A DNA stretch of 64,000 nt from Burkholderiales bacterium (GTDB taxonomy: Bacteria > Pseudomonadota > Gammaproteobacteria > Burkholderiales > Burkholderiaceae_D): NCBI GenBank assembly GCA_016177875.1, contig JACOUL010000008.1:79432-143431 (forward strand), in the 5' to 3' direction. Of this stretch, positions 3,635-55,882 are shown one piece after another (within the stretch, counting starts at the first letter, position 1; each line of letters starts with the position of its first letter). The notes below the pieces were generated by a model. The model was not told where the DNA came from, did not search any database, and saw only the letters and a list, made by a program, of their open reading frames with translations. A program made the translations under genes and the position numbers.

Positions 3635-4061
3635 AGTTGAGATTTACACCGACGGCGCTTGCAAAGGCAATCCCGGTCCGGGTGGCTGGGGCGCGTGGCT
3701 CGTGTGCGACGGTAATGAAAAAGAACTCTTCGGCGGCGAGCGCGACACCACCAACAACCGCATGGAATTAAGAGCGGTGATTGAGGCGTTGAATGCATTG
3801 AAGCGTCCATGCGAAGTGACCGTGCATACCGACAGCGAATACGTTCACAAAGGCATCAGCGAGTGGATACACGGTTGGAAAGCGCGCGGATGGAAAACCG
3901 CGGCCAAGGCGCCGGTAAAGAATGTCGACTTGTGGCAAGCGCTCGATGAAGCGCAGGCCAAACATAAGATCGAATGGCGCTGGGTCAAGGGGCACGCCGG
4001 ACATGAAGGTAACGAGCGCGCCGATCAGCTGGCCAACCGCGGCGTTGAAACGATCCTGTGA
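3627..4061 (+). CDS. rnhA: Ribonuclease HI
   Basis: [23 protein letters not shown]...HTDSEYV...[14 protein letters not shown]: canonical RNase H catalytic residues. Confidence 0.9.
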
Positions 4062-4105
4062 ATCTCGTCCACCGCAACGCCGAACGCATCGTTACCTCTT
4101 TCTTC

Positions 4106-5506
4106 CTACTGTTCTAAAGACAACCGCCACCCCCCGCCGAGAGCTCTAAACAGATCGGCTTGCGTGGCGGCGAGCGCGCGGTGCTCATCCGCATTAGCCG
4201 CTTGCGCCGTGAGCGCGAGACGCTCGGCATTGATTACGTCGAGCCGGCTGGCTTCGCCGCCCTTGTAGCGCAGCCGCGTCAGTTCGGCAGCGCGCAGCAG
4301 CGCCTGCGCACGCCGTTCGCCGCTATCCGCGCTGCTGCGCGTCTCAGCGACCGCCGCAATCGCATTGCGTACTTCGCGGAAGGCATTGGCCACGCTGTCG
4401 CGGTAGTCGAGCTCGGCTTGCAGCTGCTGCGCTTGCACCACTTCCTTCTGCGCCGAAAGGCGTCCCCCGTTCCAGATCGGTTGCGTGATCGATCCGACCA
4501 CGTTCCACAACAGCGACGGCCCGCTCATGAGCTGCGACAGCCGCGTGCTCTCATGGCCGACCGAGCCGGTGAGGGCGATGCGCGGGAAATAAGCCGCACG
4601 CGCCGCGTCTACCTGCGCACCGGCCGCGCGCAGGCGCGCCTCGGCCGCTTGCACGTCGGGACGGCGCAGCAGCAAATCGGAAGGCAAGTCTGCGGGCAGC
4701 GCACTGCTTGCTACCACCGGCTTGCCGGCACGCGCTACCTGCTGTTCGATCATCGCCTTGGGCGAGCGCCCGAGAACGATCGCCAGCGCGCGCTCCGCTT
4801 CACCGCGGGCGCGGTCGAGCTTGGGCAGTTGCGCTTCGTTGCCGATCAGTTCGGCGTCGAGCTGGCGGATGTCCAGCTCGCCGATATCGCCGTGATTGAA
4901 GCGCAGGCGCTGCAGCTTGAGGCTCTCGCGTTGTGCTTCCACCGCCTCGCCAAATAAGCGGCGCTGCGCGTCCAGGGACTGCAGCGCGGCATACGACTGC
5001 ACCACTTGCGCGATCAGCGCGGTGCGCAGCGTCTCGCGCGCGTATTCGGTGGCGAGTAGTTCTTCGCGTGCGGCGGAGGTGGCGTTCGCAGCCCGGCCCC
5101 AGAGATCCAGCTCGTAAGCGACGTCGAGCGTGATGCGATGATCGTTGGTCACCAGCGGCGTGCCCGCCGGCAGCGGCATGGTGCCGTTCTGGCTCATGCG
5201 CTGGCGGCTATTGTTGAAGCTCGCACTCACGCTCGGCAGCTGGTCGGCGCGCGCCAGCTTGAGCGCCGCGCGCGACTCGTCGATGCGCGCCATCGCGCGC
5301 GCCAGGTCTCGGTTGTGCGCGAGCGCTTCCTCGATCAGCGCATTGAGCTGCTCGTCGCCGAACTGTTTCCACCATGCAGCGGGCACCGGTTCCATCTTGG
5401 CGCCGGCAGGCAGTTCCAACGGCGCCATGCTCTTGGGCGCTTCGCCCGGCGTTGCGCAGGCGGCCAAGGCAGCCGCCGCAGCTATCGTCAATACGAAATT
5501 TTTCAT
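4106..5506 (-). CDS. RND efflux system outer-membrane channel lipoprotein (NodT/OprM family)
   Basis: 466 aa. Lipoprotein signal LAAC. OEP-family coiled-coil repeats. 4-nt overlap with the upstream RND pump gene. Confidence 0.85.
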   Translation of the reverse strand: MKNFVLTIAAAAALAACATPGEAPKSMAPLELPAGAKMEPVPAAWWKQFGDEQLNALIEEALAHNRDLARAMARIDESRAALKLARADQLPSVSASFNNSRQRMSQNGTMPLPAGTPLVTNDHRITLDVAYELDLWGRAANATSAAREELLATEYARETLRTALIAQVVQSYAALQSLDAQRRLFGEAVEAQRESLKLQRLRFNHGDIGELDIRQLDAELIGNEAQLPKLDRARGEAERALAIVLGRSPKAMIEQQVARAGKPVVASSALPADLPSDLLLRRPDVQAAEARLRAAGAQVDAARAAYFPRIALTGSVGHESTRLSQLMSGPSLLWNVVGSITQPIWNGGRLSAQKEVVQAQQLQAELDYRDSVANAFREVRNAIAAVAETRSSADSGERRAQALLRAAELTRLRYKGGEASRLDVINAERLALTAQAANADEHRALAATQADLFRALGGGWRLSLEQ

Positions 5507-34905: not shown

Positions 34906-37185
34906 TCAGACTTTCGCGCCTTGCGCTTGCGGCAATTCCTTGGCATCGCGATGCAGGCCTGCCGCCAACAGGCGATAAGCAAACAAGCCAAGGAATATGA
35001 CGCCCACGGCGAATACCACGTCGCCGGGAACGCGCAGCCACACCATGGTTTCCATGAAGGGCGAGTGAATCACTTCCGGCGAGCGTGCGTACCACATGCC
35101 CTTGCTGATGCTGGCGACCGCTTGGTAAATGCCTGCCGGCACCAGCGAGATGAAGACCATCATCGCCAAGCCGATGTTGAGCAGCCAGAAAGCCGGGGCA
35201 AGCAAACGATCCGGCCAGACGGCACGTGCAAACAAGCCGCGCAGGCAGAACAGCATCAAGCCGATGCCGAGCATGCCGTACACGCCGAACAGCGCTGCGT
35301 GGCCGTGCGCCGCCGTCATGTTCAAGCCCTGCATGTAGTACAGCGCGACCGGCGTATTGATCGAGAAGCCGAGCAAGCCGGCGCCGACCGTGTTCCAGAA
35401 GCCGACGGCGATGAAGCACAAGATCGGCCACTTGTAGGTTTGCACCCAGGGTGCGGCTTTGGAACGCTGGTAGTTGCGATAAGCCTCGATGCCGATCATC
35501 GTCAAGGGCACCACTTCCAGCGCGGAGAACATGGCGCCGATGGCGATGACGAAAGTCGGGGTGCCGGTGAAATACAAATGGTGCAGGGTGCCGAGTATGC
35601 CGCCGAACAGGAACACGATGGTTTCCAGCACGATCGCGCTGTTGGCGGTAGCGGTGCGGATCAAGCCCAAGCGGGTGAACAGCAAGGCGATCACCGCGGT
35701 GGCGAACACCTCGAAGAAGCCTTCCACCCACAGGTGCACCAGCCACCAGCGCCAGTATTCGACCATCGAGTAATGCGTATGCTTATCCCAGGTCAGCGAG
35801 GTGGCATAGAAACCGCCGATGCACATCGCAGCCAGGAACACCATGGCGATCAAGCCGCGGCTTTCCGACGGTTTTTTGAGTGCGGGCCACAAACCGCGGC
35901 CGAGCAGCGCTACCCAAATCAAGAGGCCGACGAACAGCAGGTATTGCCAGATGCGGCCCATGCTGGTGAATTCCAGCCCTTGGTTACCGATCCAGAAAGT
36001 ATAGTCCGTGCCCATGCGCTGCAGCGTACCCAGCCAGCCGCTGACGGTCGAACCGACTACGATGAACAAGAGAGCGTAGAACAGCAGGTTGACGCCCAGC
36101 TTCTGAAATTTCGGCTCATGGCCGGAAATGGCCGGGGCGATATACAAGCCGGTCGCGAGCCATGCGGTGGCGATCCACAGTACGGCGAACTGCGTGTGCA
36201 GAGTGCGGCTGACCGTGAACGGCAGGATTTGCGCGAGCGGTATGCCGAAGAAGCTTTGGCCCTCGACGGCATAGTGCGCAGTGATGACACCCATGCCGAC
36301 TTGCGCCAATATCAGGCCGACGACGACAAAGAAGTATTTCTTGGTCGCCTGCATCGACGGCGTGGGCTTCAGGTTCAACAGGGGATCGGCTTTGGGCGGC
36401 ACCGGATCGTCTTCTTCCTTTTGCGAAGAATGATAGAAAATCATGCCGGCGATGGCAGCGATCATCAGGATCACGCTGGCGATCGACCAGATGCCGGTGC
36501 CGGCGGTGGGCGTGTTGCCGACCAGCGGCTCGTGCGGCCAGTTGCTGGTATAGCTGAGATTCTCTTCGCCGGGCCGGTCGGTCGTTGCGGACCAAGCCGA
36601 CCAGAAAAAGAAGGCGGTTAAGGCTTGACGGTCTGCCGTGTCGGCCAGCGAACCCGCTTTCATCGCGTATTGCTCACGCAATTTATCGAGTGAACGTTCA
36701 TCGCCGAACAAGTCTTCGTAATGACGCGCGACTTCCTGCACGGCGGCGGCGCGTTGCGCGCTCAAGGTGAGTTGGCCGGATTGCGCATCATAAGTGTTGC
36801 GGCGCATTTCCTCTTTCAGTTGACCGTTGAGCTGCGCCTGCTGGCCCGCATTGAGCTGGGCAAACGGCTTGCCGAAATCGCGTTGCGCATGCATCTCGCG
36901 CAGCGCCAACGCTTCACGGTGCAGCCAGTCGGCCGACCAGTCCGGCGCCAGGTAACTGCCGTGGCCCCAGACGCTGCCGAGTTGCTGGCCGCCGGCCGCC
37001 AGCCATGCTTGTTGTCCCTGTTGCACTTGTGCGGCGGAGAACAGGACCTCGCCTTTGTCGCTCATGACTTGTTTGGGAATCGGCGGAGCTTTGAGATAGA
37101 TTTCGGTCCCGACCCAGCCGAGAACCGAGAACGATAAGAGACAGATGATGGCTAGCCAAGTCCATAATTTGCGTGTTGCATGCAT
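34906..37185 (-). CDS. norB: Quinol-dependent nitric oxide reductase (qNOR, single-subunit NorZ/NorB)
   Basis: 759 aa. N-terminal periplasmic extension fused to a 12-TM haem-copper oxidase-like core with conserved His ligands. Confidence 0.85.
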   Translation of the reverse strand: MHATRKLWTWLAIICLLSFSVLGWVGTEIYLKAPPIPKQVMSDKGEVLFSAAQVQQGQQAWLAAGGQQLGSVWGHGSYLAPDWSADWLHREALALREMHAQRDFGKPFAQLNAGQQAQLNGQLKEEMRRNTYDAQSGQLTLSAQRAAAVQEVARHYEDLFGDERSLDKLREQYAMKAGSLADTADRQALTAFFFWSAWSATTDRPGEENLSYTSNWPHEPLVGNTPTAGTGIWSIASVILMIAAIAGMIFYHSSQKEEDDPVPPKADPLLNLKPTPSMQATKKYFFVVVGLILAQVGMGVITAHYAVEGQSFFGIPLAQILPFTVSRTLHTQFAVLWIATAWLATGLYIAPAISGHEPKFQKLGVNLLFYALLFIVVGSTVSGWLGTLQRMGTDYTFWIGNQGLEFTSMGRIWQYLLFVGLLIWVALLGRGLWPALKKPSESRGLIAMVFLAAMCIGGFYATSLTWDKHTHYSMVEYWRWWLVHLWVEGFFEVFATAVIALLFTRLGLIRTATANSAIVLETIVFLFGGILGTLHHLYFTGTPTFVIAIGAMFSALEVVPLTMIGIEAYRNYQRSKAAPWVQTYKWPILCFIAVGFWNTVGAGLLGFSINTPVALYYMQGLNMTAAHGHAALFGVYGMLGIGLMLFCLRGLFARAVWPDRLLAPAFWLLNIGLAMMVFISLVPAGIYQAVASISKGMWYARSPEVIHSPFMETMVWLRVPGDVVFAVGVIFLGLFAYRLLAAGLHRDAKELPQAQGAKV

Positions 37186-40498: not shown

Positions 40499-40553
40499 TC
40501 TGTTCTCCTAAGATGATGGCTGCATTGTTGCAGTCGCGGCGAAGCCGTTACCT

Positions 40554-40567
40554 TGATTCAAATTAAG
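40554..40567. promoter_or_regulatory. FNR/Dnr-type box candidate (TTGAT-TCAA-ATTAA, one mismatch to TTGAT-N4-ATCAA)
   Basis: Located in the divergent hemerythrin / ubiU intergenic region. Confidence 0.35.
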
Positions 40568-40729
40568 TATTTTTTGGCTCGGAAACGCTTGATCTCGATC
40601 AATCAAATTCCGTTTCCGCTTTGCTACAGTGCATCGCGTAAGTTCGTTTTTAACTCCCGATCTCTTCTCATGTCAGCGGCTGTTACGCCTTTTCCCACTC
40701 GTGGCCAGGTTGCGCCTGCAACGGCGGCT

Positions 40730-41725
40730 ATGGAATTGGTATGCCCTGCAGGCAGTCTTCCGGCATTAAAGGCGGCAGTCGACAATGGCGCGGATTGCGT
40801 CTATCTGGGTTTTAAGGATGCGACCAACGCCCGCAATTTCGCCGGCCTGAATTTCGACGAAGCGGCGATTCAAGAAGGCGTACGCTACGCACACGACCGC
40901 CGCCGCAAGGTTTTGCTGGCCTTGAATACCTATCCGCAAGCTACGCATTGGGGCATGTGGAAGGCCGCTATCGATCATGCCGGCCGTGTTGGCGTGGATG
41001 CCGTGATCTTGGCCGACCCCTCGTTGATGGAATACGCCGCGACAAATCATCCGCAGCTGCGTCTGCATTTGTCGGTGCAAGGATCGGCGACCAATTACGA
41101 ATCGATCAATTTTTATCATCGGCGCTTCGGCATCGCGCGCGCCGTATTGCCGCGTGTTTTGTCCTTATCGCAGGTGGAGCATGTCGCCGAAAACACGCCG
41201 GTGGAAATTGAAGTGTTCGGCTTCGGCAGTTTATGCGTCATGGTGGAAGGCCGTTGCGCACTTTCCTCCTACGTGACAGGTGAAGCACCGAATACGGCGG
41301 GCGTGTGTTCGCCGGCCAAAGCGGTGCGCTGGCAGCACACGCCCAAGGGATTGGAGTCGCGCCTCAACGGCGTGTTGATCGACCGCTATGCCGACGGCGA
41401 AAACGCCGGCTATCCGACGATATGCAAGGGGCGCTTCGATGTCGCCGATGAAAATTACTACGCGATCGAAGAACCGACCAGCTTGAACACCCTTGAGCTA
41501 CTGCCGCAGCTGATGAAAATCGGCATACGTGCCATCAAGATAGAAGGACGCCAGCGCAGCCCGGCCTATGTCGCCCAAGTCACGCAAGTATGGCGGCAGG
41601 CGATCGATCAATGCCTCGACAGCCAGCAGCGTTATTCGGTCAAGCCGTCGTGGATGAATGATTTGAACAAGGTGGCCGAAGGGCAGCAGCATACGCTCGG
41701 CGCCTATCACCGGCCGTGGAAATGA
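40730..41725 (+). CDS. ubiU: O2-independent ubiquinone biosynthesis protein UbiU (U32 peptidase family)
   Basis: MELVCPAGSLPALKAAVDNGADCVYLGFKDATNARNFAGLNF: UbiU/YhbU-like. Four conserved Cys for the Fe-S cluster. Confidence 0.75.
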   Translation: MELVCPAGSLPALKAAVDNGADCVYLGFKDATNARNFAGLNFDEAAIQEGVRYAHDRRRKVLLALNTYPQATHWGMWKAAIDHAGRVGVDAVILADPSLMEYAATNHPQLRLHLSVQGSATNYESINFYHRRFGIARAVLPRVLSLSQVEHVAENTPVEIEVFGFGSLCVMVEGRCALSSYVTGEAPNTAGVCSPAKAVRWQHTPKGLESRLNGVLIDRYADGENAGYPTICKGRFDVADENYYAIEEPTSLNTLELLPQLMKIGIRAIKIEGRQRSPAYVAQVTQVWRQAIDQCLDSQQRYSVKPSWMNDLNKVAEGQQHTLGAYHRPWK

Positions 41726-42612
41726 AGCTCTCACTCGGCCCACTCCTGTACTACTGGTCGCGTGACGCGGTATTTCAGTTTTATGGCGACATGGTGGATG
41801 CGCCGGTCGATATCGTGCATCTCGGCGAAGCGGTTTGCTCACGGCGCCATGAATTGCGTTTGTCCGACTGGTTGGAGATCGCGGAACACCTTGCCGCTGC
41901 CGGCAAGGAAGTCGTGTTGTCGACCCAAGTTTTGCTGGAGTCCAAGAGCGATTTGTCGACTCTGCGCCGGATGACCGACAACGGCAAGTTCGGCGTGGAA
42001 GCCAACGACATCGGCGCGGTCAATTGCATTGCCGGACAGGCACCATTCGTCGCCGGCCCGCACCTGAATATCTATAACGCGCATACGCTTGATTTTTTTG
42101 CCAAGACCGGCGCCAAGCGCTGGGTCATGCCCTTGGAAATGTCGCGCGACAGTCTTGCGCATATTCTGCGCGAAGCGAAACAAGCACCGGAAACGGAAGT
42201 GTTTTCTTATGGCCGCATGCCCTTGGCATTTTCCGCACGCTGCTTCACCGCGCGTCATCGCAACCTGCCCAAGGACGATTGCCAATTCAGCTGTCTCGAT
42301 TATCCGGACGGCTTGCTGATGAAAACGCGGGAGAGCGAAAACTTCCTGGTCTTGAACGGCATTCAAACGCAATCTGCCTTGGTGTACAACTTGATCGATC
42401 AGCTCGATGCCATGCGCGAGTTGGGCGTAGGTGTCGTGCGCTTAAGTCCGCAGTCGCAATACATGCCGCGCATTGTCGAGCTTTTTAAAGGCGTGATGTC
42501 CGGCCAGCTGGCAGCGGACGCAGCGGCGCGGGAATTGCAGCCCTTGATGCCGGACGGCGCCTGCAACGGCTATTGGCACGGCAAGCCCGGTTTGGAACGA
42601 TTGGTAGCGTAG
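41716..42612 (+). CDS. ubiV: Ubiquinone biosynthesis protein UbiV (U32 family partner)
   Basis: MKLSLGPLLYYW...IVHLGEAVCSRR: UbiV/YhbV-like. Overlaps ubiU. Confidence 0.75.
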   Translation: MEMKLSLGPLLYYWSRDAVFQFYGDMVDAPVDIVHLGEAVCSRRHELRLSDWLEIAEHLAAAGKEVVLSTQVLLESKSDLSTLRRMTDNGKFGVEANDIGAVNCIAGQAPFVAGPHLNIYNAHTLDFFAKTGAKRWVMPLEMSRDSLAHILREAKQAPETEVFSYGRMPLAFSARCFTARHRNLPKDDCQFSCLDYPDGLLMKTRESENFLVLNGIQTQSALVYNLIDQLDAMRELGVGVVRLSPQSQYMPRIVELFKGVMSGQLAADAAARELQPLMPDGACNGYWHGKPGLERLVA

Positions 42613-45041: not shown

Positions 45042-45506
45042 ATGGAGGCCTTTTTTACGGCGTTACTTCTCTTAGCTCTTGCGCTTCCATTTCTTTTTGT
45101 CGGGATTGGAAATTTAATCCGCGTGAGAAAAGTATCGAGGTGGTCGACCGTAAAGGGCGTAATAGACTCAGCGGATTTTCAACGACCGGAAGTGCCTTCC
45201 GATGTAGATACCACTTTCCGGCCGAAGATTTGCTTTTCCTGGACATTCAATGGACACCGGTATCAATCAACCAGGCCGGGCATACATGAAAACAGCTTTG
45301 ATCACTTTAGCGAGAGCTCTGTTCGAAAATTTCTGAATCAACTTCCTATCGGCGGTGAAGTCTTGTTACTTATGGACCCAAGTGATCCATCGCGCAGTGT
45401 AGTCCGGCCGGGTATTTCAGCGCCGAGGCGTAGCCACTATTTGGCGCTGATCGCCGCAGGAGTCATTCTGTTGATTTGCGCATCAACGCTATTTGCTTTG
45501 CAGTAG
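45042..45506 (+). CDS. DUF3592-like membrane protein
   Basis: N-terminal TM helix, VKGVIDSAD...Y core, C-terminal TM helix. Same architecture as the ORF at 32627. Confidence 0.45.
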   Translation: MEAFFTALLLLALALPFLFVGIGNLIRVRKVSRWSTVKGVIDSADFQRPEVPSDVDTTFRPKICFSWTFNGHRYQSTRPGIHENSFDHFSESSVRKFLNQLPIGGEVLLLMDPSDPSRSVVRPGISAPRRSHYLALIAAGVILLICASTLFALQ

Positions 45507-45509
45507 CGA

Positions 45510-45881
45510 CTACTTCTCCTTATGCACAATAATCGCCCCGCCGCAATTCACAAAGCAAGTCCGGTAATCTTCCTCGCAGCGATAAGTCGATTCAAGTCCC
45601 CAGCAGCTACGCTTGTCATGGTCCTTTTCGCATGCCTTGACTTCCTCTTTGCCGGAGGCTTTTGCCAAGCAGGCGCGGAAATGCGATTCATTGGAGCGCT
45701 CGCAGCTGGCCTTTTCTCTTTGCGCGCGCTGGATTTCATTGCCGCGGCAGGTCTCTTTAATGGCGGCGCATTGGGTGATGCACATCCGTCCTTGGTCGGT
45801 TACCGGCGGCCGGTATTCGTAACGGATGGTCTCACAGGCAGATAGTAGGAGTAGGGCGAGTAATCCAAGGAAGCGAATCAT
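45510..45881 (-). CDS. Cysteine-rich lipoprotein (hypothetical)
   Basis: Lipobox LLSAC. 14 Cys in 123 aa. Confidence 0.45.
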   Translation of the reverse strand: MIRFLGLLALLLLSACETIRYEYRPPVTDQGRMCITQCAAIKETCRGNEIQRAQREKASCERSNESHFRACLAKASGKEEVKACEKDHDKRSCWGLESTYRCEEDYRTCFVNCGGAIIVHKEK

Positions 45882-45963
45882 GGCGTTTAATGTGTTGGTT
45901 TATCCATCTTGGCAATTCTAACTTGCTTGTTTAATTGCACCACGTATTTCAGAAAATTTCGTG

Positions 45964-46827
45964 TCACTGCGATTCTTTATCGATGAGCTCGTACTGCGCG
46001 ATCACCTGCGCACCGAACAGCAGCAAGGTCGCCACCACTTCCAAGCTCAGCAGCGCGACAATCGCGGTGGTGAGGGTGCCGTACACCACACTCGCTTGCG
46101 ACAGATTTGAAAAATACCATAACAAAATATGGCGGGTGATTTCCCACAGGATGGCGGCCGTCACGCCGCCGATGATCGCGTGCCGAAATTGCAGCCGGCC
46201 GACCGGCATCATCCAGTAAATCAGCGTGAACATGAGGATCTCGCCGCCCAGCCCGAGCAGATAGAGTAAGACGCCGGACACGCCTGCAAGACTCCACGCA
46301 TGGTTTCCTAAAACAAGATTGTGCTGGCCGAGCGCTTCCAGCAGATTGGATACCACCGTCAACACCAGCAGGCCTGCACCGAGAATGAGAATGACGCTGT
46401 ACGGAATCAAAGCGGATATCAGGAAATGACGTTTTCGCTTGAGGAAGCGGTGATAAAAAATGACCGACATCGCCTGGTTTAATCCGGAGAAAGCAAGCGA
46501 GCTGAAAAAGATCATGGTGATGAGCAGCGTCCAGCCGATCGCCGTGCGGTTCTCCAGAAAAATCGCAAGCTCATTCACCACGGCTTTGGATTGGCTCGGC
46601 ACCAGCCATTCGAGATAACGTCCAAGCGTGTGCAGCAATTCCGCTTGGCTGACGATATGCGACAGCGCAATAAAGCTCAGGATGAGCAAAGGAACGATCG
46701 ACAGCAAGGCGTAGTAAGCGAGCGCGCCTGCGAGCAGGAGGCCATTGTTCGCGCTGAAATTTTTGACGGCATCCAGAAAAAATTTCCCCGGATGCTTCAT
46801 GACATAGGCAAGGTTTGGGCTGAGCAT
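45964..46827 (-). CDS. YihY/BrkB family inner-membrane protein
   Basis: LLLAGALAYYALLSIVPLLIL: YihY signature. Six TM segments. Confidence 0.7.
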   Translation of the reverse strand: MLSPNLAYVMKHPGKFFLDAVKNFSANNGLLLAGALAYYALLSIVPLLILSFIALSHIVSQAELLHTLGRYLEWLVPSQSKAVVNELAIFLENRTAIGWTLLITMIFFSSLAFSGLNQAMSVIFYHRFLKRKRHFLISALIPYSVILILGAGLLVLTVVSNLLEALGQHNLVLGNHAWSLAGVSGVLLYLLGLGGEILMFTLIYWMMPVGRLQFRHAIIGGVTAAILWEITRHILLWYFSNLSQASVVYGTLTTAIVALLSLEVVATLLLFGAQVIAQYELIDKESQ

Positions 46828-46886
46828 GCAAACGCTATCATCCAACGAAAGTGCAAACTTTAACACTTTCGAGAATGATGATTGCC

Positions 46887-47627
46887 TTAGCTTTTTCTGA
46901 ACGTAAACTTTGGAAATAATTTCGACACGCGTGCGATCGTGTCGGCGGACGGATAGCCGGCCGTGGTGGCGGCCTTGAGTTTGTCGTCCGTGCATCCTTG
47001 CGTTCGAAATAACTGCAAGGCGTAATTGTTGACGCCCATCGACGCCAAGGTCGATGCAAGCTCGACGATTTCTTCTTCATCCAACAGTGTGGGATGGATG
47101 GTGGTACGGACTTCGTAATCAATGCCGCTTTCAAGCATGGCGTCAATGCTGGCTTGCGCCAGCTTGCCGCTGTCTGGAATGCCGGTGATCTTTTCATAGC
47201 GATCGAACGGCGCCTTGATATCCAGGCCTACCCAATCCACCCAAGGCAATACCTCGGCCAAGCGCCGAGGATAAATGCCGGCGCTATGCAGGCCGATGGC
47301 GAAGCCCATCTTGCGCACGCTCCAGATCGCTTCATTGAGCGCCGGGTCGATCGCCGGCTCGCCGCCGCTGAAGACGACGCCGTCGATCAATTCGCTGCGC
47401 CGATATAGAAAATGCAGCACATCCGACCATGCAATTGCGCTTTCCTGGGTACGCGGCTGCAGATGCGGATTGTGGCAGTAGCCGCAGCGCCAGGGACAAC
47501 CCTGGACGAAAAGCACTGCGGCCAGCATGCCGGGATAATCCGTTGCGCTGAACGGCGTCATCCCCCCGATTTTCAGCGTATCAGCAGTGCTGTTCGGCGG
47601 CGCATTCAGTGAAATATTGGCGCTCAT
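46887..47627 (-). CDS. nrdG: Anaerobic ribonucleotide reductase activating protein (radical SAM)
   Basis: FVQGCPWRCGYCHNP radical-SAM cluster motif. NrdG-like N-terminus (LKIGGMTPFSATDYPG). Confidence 0.85.
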   Translation of the reverse strand: MSANISLNAPPNSTADTLKIGGMTPFSATDYPGMLAAVLFVQGCPWRCGYCHNPHLQPRTQESAIAWSDVLHFLYRRSELIDGVVFSGGEPAIDPALNEAIWSVRKMGFAIGLHSAGIYPRRLAEVLPWVDWVGLDIKAPFDRYEKITGIPDSGKLAQASIDAMLESGIDYEVRTTIHPTLLDEEEIVELASTLASMGVNNYALQLFRTQGCTDDKLKAATTAGYPSADTIARVSKLFPKFTFRKS

Positions 47628-47775
47628 GGAACTCTCCTTTTTTACCGATGTTGAACGAGGAGACGGGGCGGTGATACCCCATCACGCGCGTCCAAATTTC
47701 GCAGCGTTGGCGCTCTGCGTCGGTCAGGATAATTTGTTTGGTGGATAAGGCGTTTTGATTGCTCAGATCGGTCAT
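47581..47775 (-). CDS. Stand-alone glycyl-radical domain protein (NrdD C-terminal module encoded separately)
   Basis: TRVMGYHRPVSSFNIGKKGEFHERQY aligns with the NrdD glycyl-radical tail (RRVCGYLG...FNAGKKEEVKRRV). GAAAAGGAG RBS before ATG (MTDLSNQ...). Overlaps nrdG by 47 nt. Confidence 0.6.
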   Translation of the reverse strand: MTDLSNQNALSTKQIILTDAERQRCEIWTRVMGYHRPVSSFNIGKKGEFHERQYFTECAAEQHC

Positions 47776-47801
47776 GGCGGTCTCCTTTTCGGGTGGGTAA
47801 A

Positions 47802-49817
47802 TCAAGCAAGCTCTTGGGTTTTGCGGGCGATGAGCTCTTCATCGCATTTCGGGCAGAATTCATGGCTGCCTTTGAGATAGCCATGCTTCGGACAAATCGA
47901 GAACGTCGGCGTCACCGTGATGTAAGGCAGGCGGAAGCGGCTCAGCGCGCGCTTGACCAGCGTGCGGCATGCCTGCGAATTCGACAGCGATTCGGTCATG
48001 TACAAATGCAGCACGGTGCCGCCGGTGTATTTGCGCTGCAATTCATCCTGACGCTCCAATGCTTCGAACGGGTCGTCGGTAAAGCCGACCGGCAACTGCG
48101 ATGAGTTGGTGTAGTAAGGCATGTCTGGCGTACCGGCCTGGATAATGTCCGTGAAGCGCTTCTTGTCTTCCTTGGCAAAGCGGTAGGTCGTGCCTTCTGC
48201 GGGCGTGGCTTCCAGGTTGTACATATTGCCGGTCTCATCCTGGAAGGCGAGCATGCGGCTGCGCACATGGTCCAGCAAACGTACGGCAAATGCATGGCCC
48301 CACTCGGTGGTGAGGTCGTGCTCGTCGCGCGTGAAATTACGGATCATCTCGTTGATGCCGTTCACGCCCAGCGTCGAGAAGTGATTGCGCAGCGTGCCGA
48401 GATAGCGCTTGGTGTACGGGAACAAACCGTTATCCATATGACGCTGGATGACCTTGCGCTTGATTTCCAAGCTGTTCTTGCCCAGCTCCATCAACTGATC
48501 GAGGCGATTCATCAATGCTTCTTCGTCGCCGCGATGCAGATAACCCAGGCGTGCGCAATTGACGGTCACCACGCCGAGCGAACCGGTTTGTTCCGCCGAA
48601 CCGAACAAGCCGTTGCCGCGCTTGAGCAGTTCGCGCAAATCCAGCTGCAAGCGGCAGCACATCGAGCGGATCATGTTGGGCTTTAATTCCGAATTCACGA
48701 AGTTCTGGAAGTAGGGCAAGCCATACTTGGCCGTCATCTCGAACAAGAGCTCAGCGTTGGGGCTGGTCCAATCGAAATCCGCCGTGATGTTGTAGGTCGG
48801 AATCGGAAAGGTGAAGACGCGTCCCTTCGCGTCGCCCGCCATCATGATCTCGATGTAAGCGCGGTTGATCATGTCCATCTCGGCCTGCAGTTCGCCGTAG
48901 CTGAACGGCATCTCGACGCCGCCGACCACCGGCACTTGTTCGCGCAAGTCTTCCGGGCAGATCCAGTCGAAGGTGAGGTTGGTGAACGGCGTTTGCGTAC
49001 CCCAGCGCGACGGCACGTTGAGGTTATAAATCAGCTCCTGCATGTACTGCTTGACTTCCACGTAGTCCAAATTGTCTTTGCGGATGTAAGGCGCCATGTA
49101 GGTATCGAAGGAGCTGAAGGCTTGCGCGCCGGCCCATTCGTTTTGCAGCGTGCCCAGGAAGTTGACGATCTGGCCGATGGCGGAAGACATATGCTTGGGC
49201 GGGCTCGATTCCACCTTGCCCGGTACGCCGTTCAAACCTTCATGCAAGAGCGTGCGCAGCGACCAGCCGGCGCAGTAACCCGCCAGCATGTCGAGGTCAT
49301 GAATGTGAATGTCTGCATTGCGATGCGCTTCGCCGACTTCCGGCGGATAGACGTGGTTCAGCCAATAGTTGGCGATGACTTTGCCGGAAACGTTCAGGAT
49401 CAGGCCTCCCAGCGAATAACCCTGGTTGGCGTTGGCGTTGACGCGCCAGTCGAGCTGCTGCAGGTATTCATTCATCGATGATTCGACATCGACCAGGGTT
49501 TGCTTATCGCTGCGCAGCTTCTTGTGCTGTTCGCGATACACCACATAGGCGCGCAAGGTATTGCGATAGCCGGCATCGAACAGGACGGACTCGACCACGT
49601 CCTGGATTTGTTCGACAAGCGGCGCTTCCGCGCCGTTTAACTGCACGCGGCGCATGACGACTTTGAGCGTCAGCTCCTCAGCTTCTTCGAAACCGTATTC
49701 GCCGCTGGCCTGTCCGGCACGCACGACGGCTGAGAGAATTTTGCGGGAATCGAAGGGGGCAATGCTGCCGTCGCGCTTGATGATATGGGTAAGAAAGGAA
49801 ATCGCTTGTGGTGTCAT
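47802..49817 (-). CDS. nrdD: Anaerobic ribonucleoside-triphosphate reductase large subunit, lacking the glycyl-radical tail
   Basis: N-terminal ATP cone (IIKRDGSIAPFDSRKI). Class III RNR core. C-terminal zinc ribbon CPKHGY...CPKC. Ends 15 residues after the ribbon with no RxxGY motif. Confidence 0.85.
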   Translation of the reverse strand: MTPQAISFLTHIIKRDGSIAPFDSRKILSAVVRAGQASGEYGFEEAEELTLKVVMRRVQLNGAEAPLVEQIQDVVESVLFDAGYRNTLRAYVVYREQHKKLRSDKQTLVDVESSMNEYLQQLDWRVNANANQGYSLGGLILNVSGKVIANYWLNHVYPPEVGEAHRNADIHIHDLDMLAGYCAGWSLRTLLHEGLNGVPGKVESSPPKHMSSAIGQIVNFLGTLQNEWAGAQAFSSFDTYMAPYIRKDNLDYVEVKQYMQELIYNLNVPSRWGTQTPFTNLTFDWICPEDLREQVPVVGGVEMPFSYGELQAEMDMINRAYIEIMMAGDAKGRVFTFPIPTYNITADFDWTSPNAELLFEMTAKYGLPYFQNFVNSELKPNMIRSMCCRLQLDLRELLKRGNGLFGSAEQTGSLGVVTVNCARLGYLHRGDEEALMNRLDQLMELGKNSLEIKRKVIQRHMDNGLFPYTKRYLGTLRNHFSTLGVNGINEMIRNFTRDEHDLTTEWGHAFAVRLLDHVRSRMLAFQDETGNMYNLEATPAEGTTYRFAKEDKKRFTDIIQAGTPDMPYYTNSSQLPVGFTDDPFEALERQDELQRKYTGGTVLHLYMTESLSNSQACRTLVKRALSRFRLPYITVTPTFSICPKHGYLKGSHEFCPKCDEELIARKTQELA

Positions 49818-49831
49818 CTCGTCTCCGTTGA

Positions 49832-49878
49832 AACACTATATGTTGGTGCGAAAGCTAGGGTAGGCACTAAATATAGTG
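49832..49878. promoter_or_regulatory. Tandem NrdR boxes upstream of nrdD
   Basis: ACACTATATGTTGGTG and GCACTAAATATAGTGG resemble the 16-bp NrdR palindrome (acaCwAtATaTwGtgt). Starts are 31 bp apart (three helical turns). Confidence 0.6.
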
Positions 49879-50296
49879 GGGTCAACGGCGTGCGAGGATT
49901 TTTTTGAAATTCTTGATCTAGGTTGGTTTTTTGAATTTGGAGGGAAAGGCGGCGTTCAAATCGGCTAGAAGTTTTTCTGTTCGTTGCTCTGGATACTTCT
50001 GTGTTGATTTTGCAATATTTTCATGTCAGGATGGTTGGAAGTTGCCGATGAAGAATTTAATGAAAAGAGGCGCCGCATTCATGAGCCGGCCGCTTTCGCG
50101 CTCGGTAACCCAAATGGATTCTTTGCCCACTGAAACTGTGACTGCAGGCGCGGCAATTTCTTTCGACGCGAAGCACTCTTCAGGCGTATGCAAGCCACGG
50201 TTCGCCTCGCTTAGTTCTTGTACTTCCGAACCGGTGAAGGCCACCCAGGCATATGGCGAGTCGGGAGCGCTGTGTTCCATGGATAGGCGAAGGGAA

Positions 50297-50830
50297 TTAC
50301 TTTGGCAAGAGTATGGAAAGTATGAGCTTAAGCTGCTTTTCGGTGGTGACTGGTCCATCAAGCGCAGCATAGCCAACCCATGCGCAATATGCCCATTGTC
50401 CTAAAGTCAGCGCTTCGTCTTTTGACCAGCCGACGCCCCGCAATAGTTTGGCGAGATAGTTGATTCTTTCCAGATCGACTCGCGCACGCACTTCTCGCAC
50501 AGCGGGATTATTCAATGACCATGACCGGATCGCTCGGTCTAATTTGAAATCCGAATAGGCGGCGCCAATAATCCATGTGCGCAATTTTGTGTGCGGGTCG
50601 TTGTTATCTTTCTCCAGGCATTGAATCGCTTCTTGCGTATAGCTCTGTTCCCATTCTTCCAGCAATGCTGTCCGGTACTCTTCAAGATTTTTGAAATGCC
50701 AATAAAAACTGCCTTTGGTGACACCCAGCTGCTCGGCAATCGGCATGATCCGGAGTCCTTCCGGCCCTTCTTCGGCAAGGGCTTGCAAGCCGGCAGTTAG
50801 CCAGCGCTGTCGATTCAATTTCTCGTCCAT
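50297..50830 (-). CDS. TetR/AcrR family transcriptional regulator
   Basis: N-terminal HTH (GLRIMPIAEQLGVTKGSFYWHF). Start at MDEKLNRQRW. Confidence 0.7.
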   Translation of the reverse strand: MDEKLNRQRWLTAGLQALAEEGPEGLRIMPIAEQLGVTKGSFYWHFKNLEEYRTALLEEWEQSYTQEAIQCLEKDNNDPHTKLRTWIIGAAYSDFKLDRAIRSWSLNNPAVREVRARVDLERINYLAKLLRGVGWSKDEALTLGQWAYCAWVGYAALDGPVTTEKQLKLILSILLPK

Positions 50831-50917
50831 GATGTCACCATACCGCAAGGTATTGACAAGCGCAATCGTTGATGTGATTATGTCCATACCGAATGGTATG
50901 GAAAATGGGAGAGCGCA

Positions 50918-51634
50918 GTGGAGTCTATTCGTATTGCAGGCATGCGGCCTGTCTGGGGATTGCCGAGCCCAAGTCCTTTTTGTCTCAAGCTGGAAACTTG
51001 GCTGCGCTTCGAAGGGATTCCATACAGCCAAGTCATCTTAAATAAGCCGCCTCAATCCAAGACCGGAAAAGTGCCTTACTTATTGCGTGCTGACGGCAGT
51101 ACGCTAGCCGACAGCAACGTCATCATCGAGACGCTTGCAAAGGAGCGCGGCATCGATCTCGGCTATGGATGCACGCCTGAAGAACAGGCACGAGCCCATG
51201 CCGTTCTGCGCATGATCGAAGAGAGCCTCTATTTTGCGGCCGTATGGGAGCGGTGGATGGATGCCAAATTTTGGCCGACGACGCGGGAAGGGTACTTTGG
51301 CCATCTGCCTGCCGGACTAAGCAAGCTGATCGCGGGGATGATACGCAAAAAAGTCCGGACCGCGCTGCATGGTCAAGGCATATCCCGGCATGAGCCAGCG
51401 CGCATTGCTGCCTTCGGCGGGGCAGATGTGAAGGTACTATCTTCAGCGCTGGGAAATCGGTCATTCTTCAGCGGCGAAAGACCGGGTGTGGTCGATGCTT
51501 CCGCCTACGGCACATTGGCCAATCTTTTGGGATTTCCGGAATCTACACCTCTAAAGGCGGTCGTTGAAGCACATCCCAATTTGGTGGAATTCTGTCGCCG
51601 TATTAAGAGCGGTTACTGGCGTGAGGAGGGCTGA
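50918..51634 (+). CDS. Glutathione S-transferase-like (thioredoxin-fold N-domain) protein
   Basis: GST N-terminal-like region (PFCLKLETWLRFEGIPY...GKVPYLL) plus a helical C-domain. Confidence 0.55.
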   Translation: MESIRIAGMRPVWGLPSPSPFCLKLETWLRFEGIPYSQVILNKPPQSKTGKVPYLLRADGSTLADSNVIIETLAKERGIDLGYGCTPEEQARAHAVLRMIEESLYFAAVWERWMDAKFWPTTREGYFGHLPAGLSKLIAGMIRKKVRTALHGQGISRHEPARIAAFGGADVKVLSSALGNRSFFSGERPGVVDASAYGTLANLLGFPESTPLKAVVEAHPNLVEFCRRIKSGYWREEG

Positions 51635-54451: not shown

Positions 54452-55882
54452 ATGGCAGCCTTGGCAAAAACCTCACTCGTTACCTCTTCCGTCGAATTCG
54501 ATGCGCAACTGATTAAGAAACTCAGTCAGCTCGGTCCGCGCTATACCTCGTATCCGACGGCGGATCGGTTCACCGACGCCTTCACCGTAGAAGATTATCG
54601 GCAAGCGGTGGCGCGTGTGCGCGAACGAGGCGCGCCTAGTCCGCTTTCGCTGTATCTGCATATCCCGTTTTGCAACACCGTTTGCTATTACTGCGGCTGC
54701 AATAAGATCGTGACGAAAGATCGCAGCAAGGCGGAGATTTATCTCGGCTACTTGAAGCGGGAAATCGATATGCAGGCCGAGCTGCTTGCCGGCATGAACC
54801 ATGTCGAGCAATTGCATTTCGGCGGCGGTACGCCGACTTATCTCTCGGATGAGCAGATGGACGACTTGCTCTTGTATTTGCACAGGAGCTTCAAGTTTGC
54901 GCCGGATGAAGTAGGGGAGTATTCGATCGAAGTCGATCCGCGCACCGTGACACCGGAGCGCGTGCATACTTTGCGCCGCCAAGGATTCAACCGTATCAGC
55001 CTGGGTGTGCAGGACTTCGATCCTGTCGTGCAAAAAGCGGTCAATCGCATCCAGCCGGAAGAACAAACTTTTGCGGTGATCGAGGCGGCGCGCGAGGCGG
55101 GCTTCCGTTCGATCAGCATCGACTTGATCTACGGTTTGCCGAAGCAAAACCTGGTGACGATGTCGCAGACGATCGATAAAGTGATTGCCGCCAATCCGGA
55201 TCGTCTTGCCATTTACAACTACGCGCATTTGCCGCATTTGTTCAAGCCGCAGCGCCGCATCGCCGAGGAAGATTTGCCGAGCGCCGACACCAAGCTCGAT
55301 ATGCTTGCCTTGTGCATCAAGCGTTTGACCGAGGCGGGCTATGTCTACATCGGCATGGACCATTTCGCCAAGCCGACCGATGATTTGGCGGTCGCGCAAA
55401 GAGAAGGGCGCTTGCATCGCAACTTCCAAGGATATTCCACGCATGCCGATGCCGATTTGGTGTCGTGCGGCGTATCGGCCATTAGCGCCATGGGGAATAC
55501 CTACAGCCAGAACGTCAAAACGCTGGATGAATATTATGCGCGCTTGGATGCGGGTGAATTGCCGATTTCGCGCGGCATCAAGCTGGGCATGGATGACATT
55601 TTGCGCCGGACGATAATTCAAATGCTGATGTGCCATTTCGAATTGTCGGTGGATGCCGTCGAAGACCTCTTTCCGATCAGCTTCCATTCTTACTTCGCCT
55701 CCGAGCTTGAAAAACTGCGAGCCTTTGAAGCGGACGGCCTGGTCACCGTCGATCAGGATCGTATCTTCGTGCCTTTGAAGGGACGTTTGTTGATCCGCAA
55801 TATTTGCATGGTATTCGACCGCTATTTGAGTTTGCCCAGAGTGTTGGAAGCGCAGCCCATGCGGTTTTCGAAGACGATTTGA
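54452..55882 (+). CDS. hemN: Oxygen-independent coproporphyrinogen III oxidase (radical SAM)
   Basis: LYLHIPFCNTVCYYCGCNK CxxxCxxC motif. Full-length HemN architecture (476 aa). Confidence 0.85.
   Translation: MAALAKTSLVTSSVEFDAQLIKKLSQLGPRYTSYPTADRFTDAFTVEDYRQAVARVRERGAPSPLSLYLHIPFCNTVCYYCGCNKIVTKDRSKAEIYLGYLKREIDMQAELLAGMNHVEQLHFGGGTPTYLSDEQMDDLLLYLHRSFKFAPDEVGEYSIEVDPRTVTPERVHTLRRQGFNRISLGVQDFDPVVQKAVNRIQPEEQTFAVIEAAREAGFRSISIDLIYGLPKQNLVTMSQTIDKVIAANPDRLAIYNYAHLPHLFKPQRRIAEEDLPSADTKLDMLALCIKRLTEAGYVYIGMDHFAKPTDDLAVAQREGRLHRNFQGYSTHADADLVSCGVSAISAMGNTYSQNVKTLDEYYARLDAGELPISRGIKLGMDDILRRTIIQMLMCHFELSVDAVEDLFPISFHSYFASELEKLRAFEADGLVTVDQDRIFVPLKGRLLIRNICMVFDRYLSLPRVLEAQPMRFSKTI

Follow-up and report, generated by a model that had tools for sequence, protein, structure and literature searches.

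Three consecutive ORFs on the minus strand of the window (the whole 64,000-nucleotide stretch of Burkholderiales DNA analysed here) most probably, at an estimated 85%, encode a naturally split, obligate heteromeric class III ribonucleotide reductase (RNR) of the NrdDh4 group, the radical subunit of which is made in trans. Enzymes of this class are oxygen-sensitive and provide the building blocks of DNA anaerobically. These ORFs are nrdD (49817–47802), encoding a large subunit of 671 aa with an ATP-cone, a ten-stranded barrel and a zinc ribbon but without a glycyl-radical loop; a 64-aa ORF (47775–47581) encoding the small, glycyl-radical subunit; and nrdG (47627–46887), encoding a radical SAM activase of 246 aa. 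The nrdD stop codon TGA (47804–47802) is followed by a 26-nt spacer (47776–47801) that contains the RBS GAAAAGGAG at 47790–47782 and, after a further 6 nt, by the ATG of the small ORF at 47775, which lies in the +2 frame relative to nrdD. The nrdG ATG at 47627 results in a 47-nt overlap with the small ORF, and both this start codon and the nrdG RBS AAAGGAG (47634–47640) sit within the conserved GKKGEFHE codons of the small ORF. An earlier note on this DNA had described a small ORF with its own frame and RBS as well as the 47-nt overlap, and both were borne out.

The large subunit, an exact match to the protein P0388 named ‘ribonucleoside triphosphate reductase [Burkholderiales bacterium]’, was recognized by NF006126 with 1151 bits (cutoff 548) over positions 3–659 of 684, and by PF13597 (NRDD) with 589 bits (cutoff 26.2) over profile positions 2–531 of 562. 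Its residues 11–100 (49518–49787) form the ATP-cone allosteric domain (PF03477, E=5e-20). Before the finger loop, residues 386–389 (48651–48662) read MCCR, a variant of the SCCR motif that was also found in 78 of the 79 related loci; as this double-cysteine motif is the mark of group NrdDh4 in RNRdb (PMC4493059), we infer that the enzyme belongs to this group of the subclass NrdDh. The zinc ribbon CPKHGYLKGSHEFCPKC (CxxH-x9-CxxC, residues 642–658, 47844–47894) is contained entirely within the large subunit and is homologous to the Zn site of Thermotoga maritima NrdD (TmNrdD). Since its ligands align with the CxxxHx6CxxC site of the TmNrdD crystal structure (PMC4493059), the break between the two chains can be placed between the Zn domain and the Gly loop. 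The large chain terminates with ...CPKHGYLKGSHEFCPKCDEELIARKTQELA*, 13 residues past the last zinc-ribbon Cys and not 15 as stated in the earlier note, which was nevertheless correct that nrdD lacks the RxxGY motif, the profile match stopping at position 531. The R[VI]xGY glycyl-radical motif is absent from the 671-aa chain, and this feature of an NrdD is found only in the two chains jointly.

The missing portion resides in the small ORF, whose translation, MTDLSNQNALSTKQIILTDAERQRCEIWTRVMGYHRPVSSFNIGKKGEFHERQYFTECAAEQHC (64 aa), carries an RVMGY glycyl-radical loop. This protein matched PF13597 with 30.9 bits (cutoff 26.2) at profile positions 532–562 of 562, confirming the alignment with the NrdD glycyl-radical tail reported previously, and NF006126 at positions 649–682 of 684. 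The NRDD profile is therefore divided exactly at 531/532 of 562 by the two ORFs and, based on this complementary coverage together with the NF006126 matches spanning positions 3–682 of 684, the two ORFs jointly constitute one complete NrdD. The PFL-type Gly_radical domain (PF01228) was not found in the small protein, for which a Pfam scan at E≤1 gave NRDD only and an NCBIfam scan NrdD models only. It is identical to the protein P0001, ‘hypothetical protein HYS18_02285 [Burkholderiales bacterium]’.

Within the small subunit (47581–47775), a variable leader (residues 1–16) and a variable tail flank a conserved glycyl-radical core (residues 17–57) that includes Cys25 (47701–47703) and Gly33 (47677–47679). 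For the leader, put at ~30 aa in the earlier note, 24 residues precede the invariant Cys25 and 32 precede Gly33, and of the extra Cys residues that the note had pointed out, only Cys25 is conserved (82 of 82 loci and 100 of 101 database proteins), whereas Cys58 and Cys64 are variable. The core is under strong purifying selection, with a pN/pS of 0.15–0.19 as compared with 0.84 in the leader and 0.97 in the tail. In an AF2 model of the concatenated chains (moderate confidence, mean pLDDT ~70), Gly33 is located at the tip of a beta-hairpin, matching class III RNR structures. When modelled alone, the small protein was mainly coil (pTM 0.34), as expected of a peptide that folds only on docking, and a PDB sequence search with the small protein alone as query gave no match. 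A Zn site shared between the chains, formed by three Cys of the large chain and Cys25, was considered as fused relatives read CxxC-x3..11-C, but was not retained as the main interpretation, given that the four ligands of the Zn in TmNrdD (Cys/His/Cys/Cys) all have counterparts in the large chain. Cys25 should be situated near the Zn site.

The nrdG product was assigned to the NrdG2 type by TIGR02495 (205 bits, cutoff 131), and hence a radical SAM activase, as expected for an NrdD, adjoins and overlaps the small ORF. This overlap is kept in many of the related loci (g_gap about −35 to −55).

The two-gene layout was present in 77 of 79 related genomic loci drawn from finished genomes and MAGs. 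Relative to nrdD, the small ORF is in the +2 frame in 38 loci, in the +1 frame in 24 and in the 0 frame in 17; the gap between both genes ranges from −41 to +221 nt, and in each locus the small ORF starts with its own ATG preceded by a Shine-Dalgarno-like motif. Relatives of the small protein were detected in at least 598 species genomes and in at least 162 plasmid or chromid records. Among 3965 homologues of this protein, the top 120 are all 55–86 aa long, and nearly all of the best 150 cluster representatives are 55–130 aa, with 440 reaching E≤1e-10. The split layout also occurs in Cupriavidus necator H16 (pHG1), Ralstonia solanacearum, Bradyrhizobium japonicum and Paracoccus, the small gene is annotated in RefSeq complete genomes, and the split clade extends across Alpha-, Beta- and Gammaproteobacteria, Chlamydiae, Elusimicrobiota and Omnitrophota. 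The nrdD/nrdG locus of C. necator H16 pHG1, which itself carries the split, is reportedly indispensable when the bacterium grows anaerobically by denitrification (Siedow 1999, cited in PMC2864759). The comparison of orthologues suggested in the earlier note thus revealed a split in every close relative examined, in three frames and with variable spacers, and strongly supports the first of its two alternatives, a genuinely split class III RNR. Judged from sequence comparison, hundreds of bacterial species share the split as a conserved feature, and it does not stem from an error in sequencing.

Fused relatives were seen in Actinobacteria only. In an Actinomyces fused relative (72% identity) the same sequences are joined by an 11-residue linker, and an NJ tree rooted at the midpoint places this protein outside the entire set of split sequences. 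A search for full-length fused relatives with a chimeric query (large-subunit tail plus small-subunit core) returned short fragments only, mostly actinobacterial, and no re-fusion was seen among the 77 split loci. Further candidates for fusion were rejected: the nrdD of Massilia sp. H-1 (L074) reads through, but was dismissed since it has at least five other frame changes; P0458 (748 aa) contains an internal duplication instead, and P0219 is an unrelated repeat protein. At two loci (L078 and L079) the small ORF occurs without nrdD or nrdG within 4 kb, so that tight operon coupling is not universal. Unlinked small genes were noted in gut Sutterella and Parabacteroides bins, one of them beside rubrerythrin.

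Single-chain NrdDh enzymes, such as TmNrdD (PDB 4COI/4U3E) and the thioredoxin-dependent NrdD of Neisseria bacilliformis, have the same fold and domain order as the system described here, namely an ATP-cone/N-terminal region, the barrel, xCCR, a Cys/His/Cys/Cys zinc domain and the R[VI]xGY loop, and likewise have an NrdG2-type activase. In these single-chain enzymes, however, one polypeptide carries the zinc domain and, after it, the glycine loop (through a 4-residue linker in TmNrdD), whereas here a stop, a spacer, an RBS and a new start lie in between. The TmNrdD type furthermore shows SCCR where this group shows MCCR, and Val where this group has the invariant Cys 8 residues before the Gly. 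In NrdJa/NrdJb of Pseudomonas aeruginosa the catalytic chain of an RNR is also encoded by two adjacent genes, with the break near the C-terminus around the zinc-finger region (PMC9669993), but this RNR is of another, B12-dependent class without a glycyl radical.

Like the small protein, GrcA/YfiD and Y06I of phage T4 are small and free-standing, with a flexible N-terminus and a glycyl-radical loop (PMC13450708, PMC12288474). GrcA is activated by a radical SAM enzyme and gives its radical domain in trans to a large barrel protein (PMC13450708, PMC12288474), and by analogy the small protein may act in a similar manner. GrcA, however, belongs to the PFL-type Gly_radical family and rescues a pyruvate formate-lyase that normally bears a radical domain itself. 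The small protein, by contrast, matches only the tail of NrdD, provides the sole glycine loop of its partner and is usually encoded between nrdD and nrdG. Because no glycine loop is encoded in the large subunit, the small protein would be an obligate part of the enzyme with a constitutive rather than a rescue role. The comparison with a GrcA-like cofactor made in the earlier note therefore holds for the function, but neither for the family (NRDD, not Gly_radical) nor for the role as a spare for an intact enzyme.

The second alternative of the earlier note, that a single-chain nrdD was disrupted in this MAG, be it by a recent mutation or by a frameshift introduced in sequencing or assembly, was rejected on the basis of the comparative data and of selection, and we regard it as almost certainly wrong. 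Ahead of its ATG, the small ORF has 22 further codons free of stops in its frame, and a single insertion or deletion in the final ~13 codons of nrdD would make the two frames continuous, NF006126 is one family of 684 positions, and the related Massilia sp. H-1 assembly does read through, albeit with its other frame changes. However, 77 of 79 independent loci are split in three frames, with spacers of up to 221 nt and an SD-like motif and ATG for each small ORF, and thousands of stand-alone small proteins, the purifying selection on the core and the annotated gene in RefSeq complete genomes all speak against a frameshift. Contiguous orthologues in close relatives, which the earlier note had coupled to a frame-restoring indel as signs of a frameshift, were not found among those examined; a single indel could formally join the frames near the nrdD end, but this is not by itself an argument for a frameshift. 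It is also highly improbable that the two ORFs are joined in translation by a programmed frameshift, stop-codon readthrough or ribosomal bypass to yield a single-chain NrdD. The adjacent, co-oriented arrangement of both genes, the 17 loci with the small ORF in frame with nrdD, and the translational bypassing known in T4-like phages, though for genes other than nrdD, would be in line with such recoding. A recoding signal would be conserved, whereas the relative frame and the length (−41 to +221 nt) and sequence of the spacer are not; this variation and the own start of each small ORF led us to reject recoding or bypass, against which the unlinked small ORFs (L078, L079) and an Rfam search of 45500–51000, which gave no element, also argue.

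For the split enzyme, we infer that the two subunits assemble, that the small one is perhaps activated in trans and exchanged once damaged by oxygen, and that translation of the genes is coupled. All three genes would share a single transcript, on which ribosomes translating the small ORF would run into the RBS and start codon of nrdG. The ATP-cone, the zinc ribbon and the catalytic barrel bearing the MCCR cysteines would come from the large subunit, and the beta-hairpin with the radical glycine, Gly33 in RVMGY, from the small one; this hairpin would be inserted into the barrel and thereby place the radical beside the active-site cysteine. NrdG would abstract the hydrogen of Gly33 while the small subunit is docked, or else from the free peptide. 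Oxygen cleavage at the glycyl radical would then cost only a 7-kDa peptide, and the 76-kDa subunit would not need to be remade; such a design may represent a built-in form of the ‘spare-part’ principle of GrcA, suited to facultative denitrifiers that cross oxic-anoxic boundaries. This rationale of replacement after oxygen damage is drawn from the likeness to GrcA and from host lifestyle and perhaps applies; neutral gene fission would predict identical sequence data. Only tentatively do we propose that the 64-aa protein is a diffusible, exchangeable radical cofactor, with NrdG acting on the free or loosely bound peptide, which would subsequently dock and be swapped after oxygen cleavage. Rather unlikely, in our estimate, is a real but neutral fission, after which both chains would be permanently assembled as in the fused enzyme, with neither exchange nor activation in trans. 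Conservation, complementarity and selection on the core would equally be expected after fission followed by obligate co-dependence, and the split class II RNR NrdJa/NrdJb provides a precedent without known benefit (PMC9669993); the wide occurrence of the split clade and its retention across phyla, the lack of re-fusion among the 77 loci and the unlinked small genes, once beside rubrerythrin, are suggestive of the opposite.

To our knowledge, current descriptions of glycyl-radical enzymes all place the radical glycine at the C-terminal end of the catalytic polypeptide. The way in which the buried loop leaves the barrel to reach its activase is a standing structural question, and coping with irreversible oxygen cleavage is understood for PFL and GrcA only. 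A loop on its own 7-kDa chain would offer a direct handle, by which the radical subunit could be labelled, mutated, activated and titrated apart from the barrel, and the hosts of the system include denitrifiers and pathogens amenable to genetics (C. necator H16, P. denitrificans, R. solanacearum, Bradyrhizobium). If the small subunit were indeed an exchangeable cofactor, this would be the first glycyl-radical enzyme that depends on delivery of its radical domain in trans, as well as the first ‘spare-part’ system beyond the formate lyases, and the unlinked Sutterella and Parabacteroides copies, including the one by rubrerythrin, would be dedicated replacement genes. According to a 2026 review, formate lyases alone possess small radical ‘spare-part’ proteins, and no description of a split NrdD was found in the searchable literature; the small ORF may have been noted before, by Siedow et al. 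(1999) or by Wei et al. (2014). Some records lack the small gene or term it ‘hypothetical protein’ while naming the large gene a complete reductase, and consequently neglect of the small ORF may render pathway predictions or knock-outs misleading.

Upstream of nrdD (49832–49879), two NrdR-box-like palindromes, CACTATATTTAGTG and AACATATAGTGTT, are statistically weak and were assigned by position only; the box at 49864–49879 has 3 mismatches to the consensus, and the second palindrome was recognized by eye. Neither an FNR/Anr box at ≤2 mismatches nor a sigma-70 consensus promoter was found upstream of nrdD. The neighbouring genes in the window, encoding qNor, a U32 peptidase pair and a HemN-like protein, are of a type associated with an anaerobic lifestyle.

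Three successive ORFs on the minus strand of the window encode the 671-aa nrdD product (49817 to 47802), a 64-aa protein (ATG at 47775, stop codon at 47583-47581) and a 246-aa NrdG (47627 to 46887), the last being of the NrdG2 type by TIGR02495 (205 bits). The nrdD product ends in ...FSICPKHGYLKGSHEFCPKCDEELIARKTQELA, its stop codon lying 13 residues past the final zinc-ribbon Cys and not 15 as previously counted. The small ORF occupies the +2 frame with respect to nrdD and is preceded by a 26-nt spacer containing GAAAAGGAG (47790-47782), 6 bases 5' of the small-ORF ATG. The ORF coordinates reproduced the 47 nt overlap between the small ORF and nrdG reported in the earlier note. As the RBS (AAAGGAG, 47640-47634) and ATG of nrdG are embedded in the codons of the small protein's conserved GKKGEFHE motif, positions 47625-47642 (minus strand) are under constraint both as protein and as translation signal. 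Overlaps of similar size (35-55 nt) were found in many related loci, and elsewhere nrdG is located 4-284 nt downstream. At two MAG loci, L052 (Omnitrophica) and L082 (Betaproteobacteria), nrdG lies ∼1.9 kb downstream of the small ORF with no overlap, indicating that at least one gene is inserted between them. After nrdG in the window, an ORF for a BrkB/YihY-family membrane protein (45964-46995, minus strand) shares, as listed, 109 nt with the 3' end of nrdG, and its true start is therefore probably further downstream.

Profile matches indicated that the large and small ORFs together make up one NrdD. The large protein corresponds to positions 2-531 of the 562 positions of Pfam NRDD and the small protein to positions 532-562 (30.9 bits versus a cutoff of 26.2); on NCBIfam NF006126 (684 positions) they span 3-659 and 649-682, respectively. 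The large protein carries an ATP-cone (residues 11-100), and the closest solved structures are the class III RNRs of Prevotella copri, Thermotoga maritima, Streptococcus thermophilus and phage T4. Of the related large subunits, 78 gave a readable match, and every one of these has both a CxxH-x9-CxxC motif and, ahead of the finger loop, MCCR, the mark of group NrdDh4 within RNRdb subclass NrdDh (PMC4493059). In the crystal structure of T. maritima NrdD (TmNrdD), Zn is ligated by CxxxHx6CxxC and the glycine loop follows four residues on, dipping into the barrel (PMC4493059). By homology with TmNrdD, the zinc domain is judged to be complete in the large subunit, and the chain break is placed in the short surface linker between zinc domain and glycine hairpin. 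In the window, the large chain instead ends in a 13-residue tail and the small chain starts with a variable leader of 24 residues, which together take the place of this linker. An invariant Cys 8 residues before the Gly was found in 82 of 82 loci, in 100 of 101 database proteins and in the fused relatives as well, whereas TmNrdD has Val at this position; the Cys should be close to the zinc site. One or more Cys also occur in the variable C-terminal tail of approximately 57% of the small proteins (47/82 loci, 56/101 database proteins), those of the window being Cys58 and Cys64 (47584-47604, minus strand). Such tail cysteines might conceivably have a part in re-reduction by thioredoxin, like the C-terminal cysteines of class I and II RNRs.

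The earlier note had offered both a genuinely split anaerobic RNR and a frameshifted gene as explanations. Database searches with the small protein yielded 3965 homologues at E<=1e-3, the best 120 of which are all 55-86 aa long, and an exact match, 'hypothetical protein HYS18_02285 [Burkholderiales bacterium]'. Among 50%-identity cluster representatives there were 1573 matches (440 at E<=1e-10), the best 150 being almost all 55-130 aa, and a scan of one genome per species detected a relative in at least 598 genomes. The 80 best loci and three plasmid loci were classified for layout. The split state was found in 77 of the 79 loci containing both parts, and across these 79 the small ORF is in the +2 (38), +1 (24) or 0 (17) frame relative to nrdD, with distances from nrdD stop to small ATG of -41 to +221 nt (median 29). 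Every small ORF among the classified loci starts with ATG after a Shine-Dalgarno-like motif. With synonymous sites near saturation, pN/pS over 82 small ORFs was 0.19 for the core (residues 17-57), 0.15 for the part of it outside the nrdG overlap, 0.84 for the leader and 0.97 for the tail. Although a single indel in the last ∼13 nrdD codons of the window could formally join the frames, the comparison of loci shows the two-gene state to be the selected state. A genuine split is thus upheld by the prevalence of separate ORFs in three frames, their own starts and the low core pN/pS, and the frameshift explanation fails against the variable frames and spacers of the related loci.

The two exceptions among the 79 loci were Actinomyces oris and Massilia sp. 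H-1 (locus L074, CP087969.1). The latter was rejected as a fused case, its nrdD being split over six or more tblastn matches that differ in frame; given at least five other frame changes, the read-through appears to be an assembly artefact. Actinomyces oris NrdD is genuinely fused (659 aa), has 72% identity to the window protein and shares the MCCR motif. Fused relatives were seen only in Actinobacteria, with fragments from Dermabacteraceae, Propionibacteriaceae, Microbacterium and Streptomyces, and in these 3-15 residues link the zinc ribbon to the invariant Cys. A midpoint-rooted NJ tree of 29 large-subunit sequences placed the fused Actinomyces protein outside all split ones, which fits a single fission event, the test being weak with one fused sequence and no outgroup. 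Two database proteins retrieved as homologues were set aside: P0458, an NrdD of 748 aa in which ∼77 residues are duplicated internally, probably through misassembly, and P0219 (988 aa), an unrelated protein with a dozen or so GRCEVWTR-containing Cys-rich repeats that matched spuriously in ten stretches.

The large nrdD/small ORF/nrdG layout is annotated in Ralstonia solanacearum (small gene a 'hypothetical protein', ATGA overlap) and Paracoccus ferrooxidans, and is present in Bradyrhizobium japonicum, where PGAP calls the small gene nrdD. Plasmid pHG1 of Cupriavidus necator H16 encodes a 676-aa protein followed, after a 142-nt gap, by a 66-aa protein (WP_011154154.1) and then NrdG, and 162 plasmid or chromid records gave a tblastn match to the small protein. 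The species scan also yielded Alpha- and Gammaproteobacteria, Chlamydiae, Elusimicrobiota and Omnitrophota. The C. metallidurans CH34 genome paper gives NrdDG as Rmet_5137 and Rmet_5139, one locus tag being skipped between them, and states, citing Siedow et al. 1999, that pHG1 nrdDG is required for full denitrifying growth of H16 (PMC2864759). At least one model organism would hence have a split locus that works in vivo. Small ORFs were also observed on gut-derived contigs from a Sutterella MAG and a bin labelled Parabacteroides distasonis (47-49% GC), at L078:4013-4204 (+), flanked by phosphoribosyltransferase and M20 peptidase genes, and at L079:∼4004-4183 (+), flanked by UvrD-like helicase and rubrerythrin genes. 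No nrdD or nrdG was found within 4 kb on either side; each ORF may be an unlinked gene for the subunit or a copy dedicated as a spare.

For the AlphaFold2 model of the concatenated chains (mean pLDDT 69.9, pTM 0.62), large and small subunits were aligned together with fused fragments. The small part formed a beta-hairpin from small residues 26-31 and 34-37, the tip being Gly33, and continued into a helix, and Foldseek retrieved class III RNR structures (TM 0.5-0.68). Modelled singly, the small protein was mostly coil (pTM 0.34). At this moderate model confidence, the predictions are compatible with a peptide that folds upon docking.

In view of the architecture, conservation and selection observed, the locus most likely encodes an obligate two-chain class III RNR, for which assembly, trans-activation and exchange of the small chain may be proposed. 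The small chain would place its hairpin inside the large-chain barrel, and the radical on Gly33 would be generated by NrdG; the nrdG overlap suggests translational coupling of radical-subunit and activase production. A detached radical subunit could be activated away from the barrel and, after cleavage by oxygen, replaced at a cost of 64 residues rather than 735. Neutral fission, with the two chains permanently assembled, would account for the sequence data equally well, and we regard it as possible though doubtful. Low-cost replacement of the radical subunit would, if it occurs, fit the lifestyle of the facultative denitrifiers in which this enzyme is encoded.

The closest family is that of the single-chain NrdDh enzymes (T. 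maritima, N. bacilliformis), all of whose defining sequence features are present in the window enzyme, except that the glycine motif is off the catalytic chain. The GrcA-like autonomous cofactor envisaged in the earlier note holds as a functional analogy, GrcA/YfiD being a free-standing glycyl-radical protein, but not as family membership, since Pfam and NCBIfam scans of the small protein gave NRDD matches only and no PFL-type Gly_radical match. The small protein differs further in being the sole glycine loop of its partner. A precedent for a divided RNR chain is the split class II RNR NrdJa/NrdJb (PMC9669993). Neither a split NrdD nor a separately encoded radical domain was found in the searchable literature, though subscription journals may mention one. 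The RNRdb paper, the NrdDh paper, the survey of RNR insertions and extensions, the review on the origin and evolution of ribonucleotide reduction, the Prevotella copri NrdD study, the aminoacyl-radical-enzyme paper and the 2026 GRE review make no mention of a split NrdD, and the 2026 review states that, among GRE classes, small spare-part proteins are confined to formate lyases (PMC13450708). Annotation pipelines call the small gene, as 'nrdD' or 'hypothetical protein', so the ORF is visible in databases, yet as far as we have seen it is without interpretation in the searchable literature.

Just upstream of nrdD, two NrdR-box-like palindromes lie ∼33 bp apart (49832-49879, minus strand); one of them passed an NrdR consensus search allowing 3 mismatches, the match count of which was not above chance for the window. 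No FNR/Anr box was detected upstream of nrdD within 2 mismatches. The neighbourhood is of anaerobic-lifestyle character, with a quinol-type nitric oxide reductase (qNor, 34906-37185, minus strand; NorB with a cytochrome c-like domain), two adjacent U32 peptidase genes (40553-42612, plus strand), of the family of UbiU/UbiV, and a HemN-like radical SAM gene (54452-55882, plus strand). The Ralstonia nrdD locus adjoins a U32 pair and an SCP2 gene.
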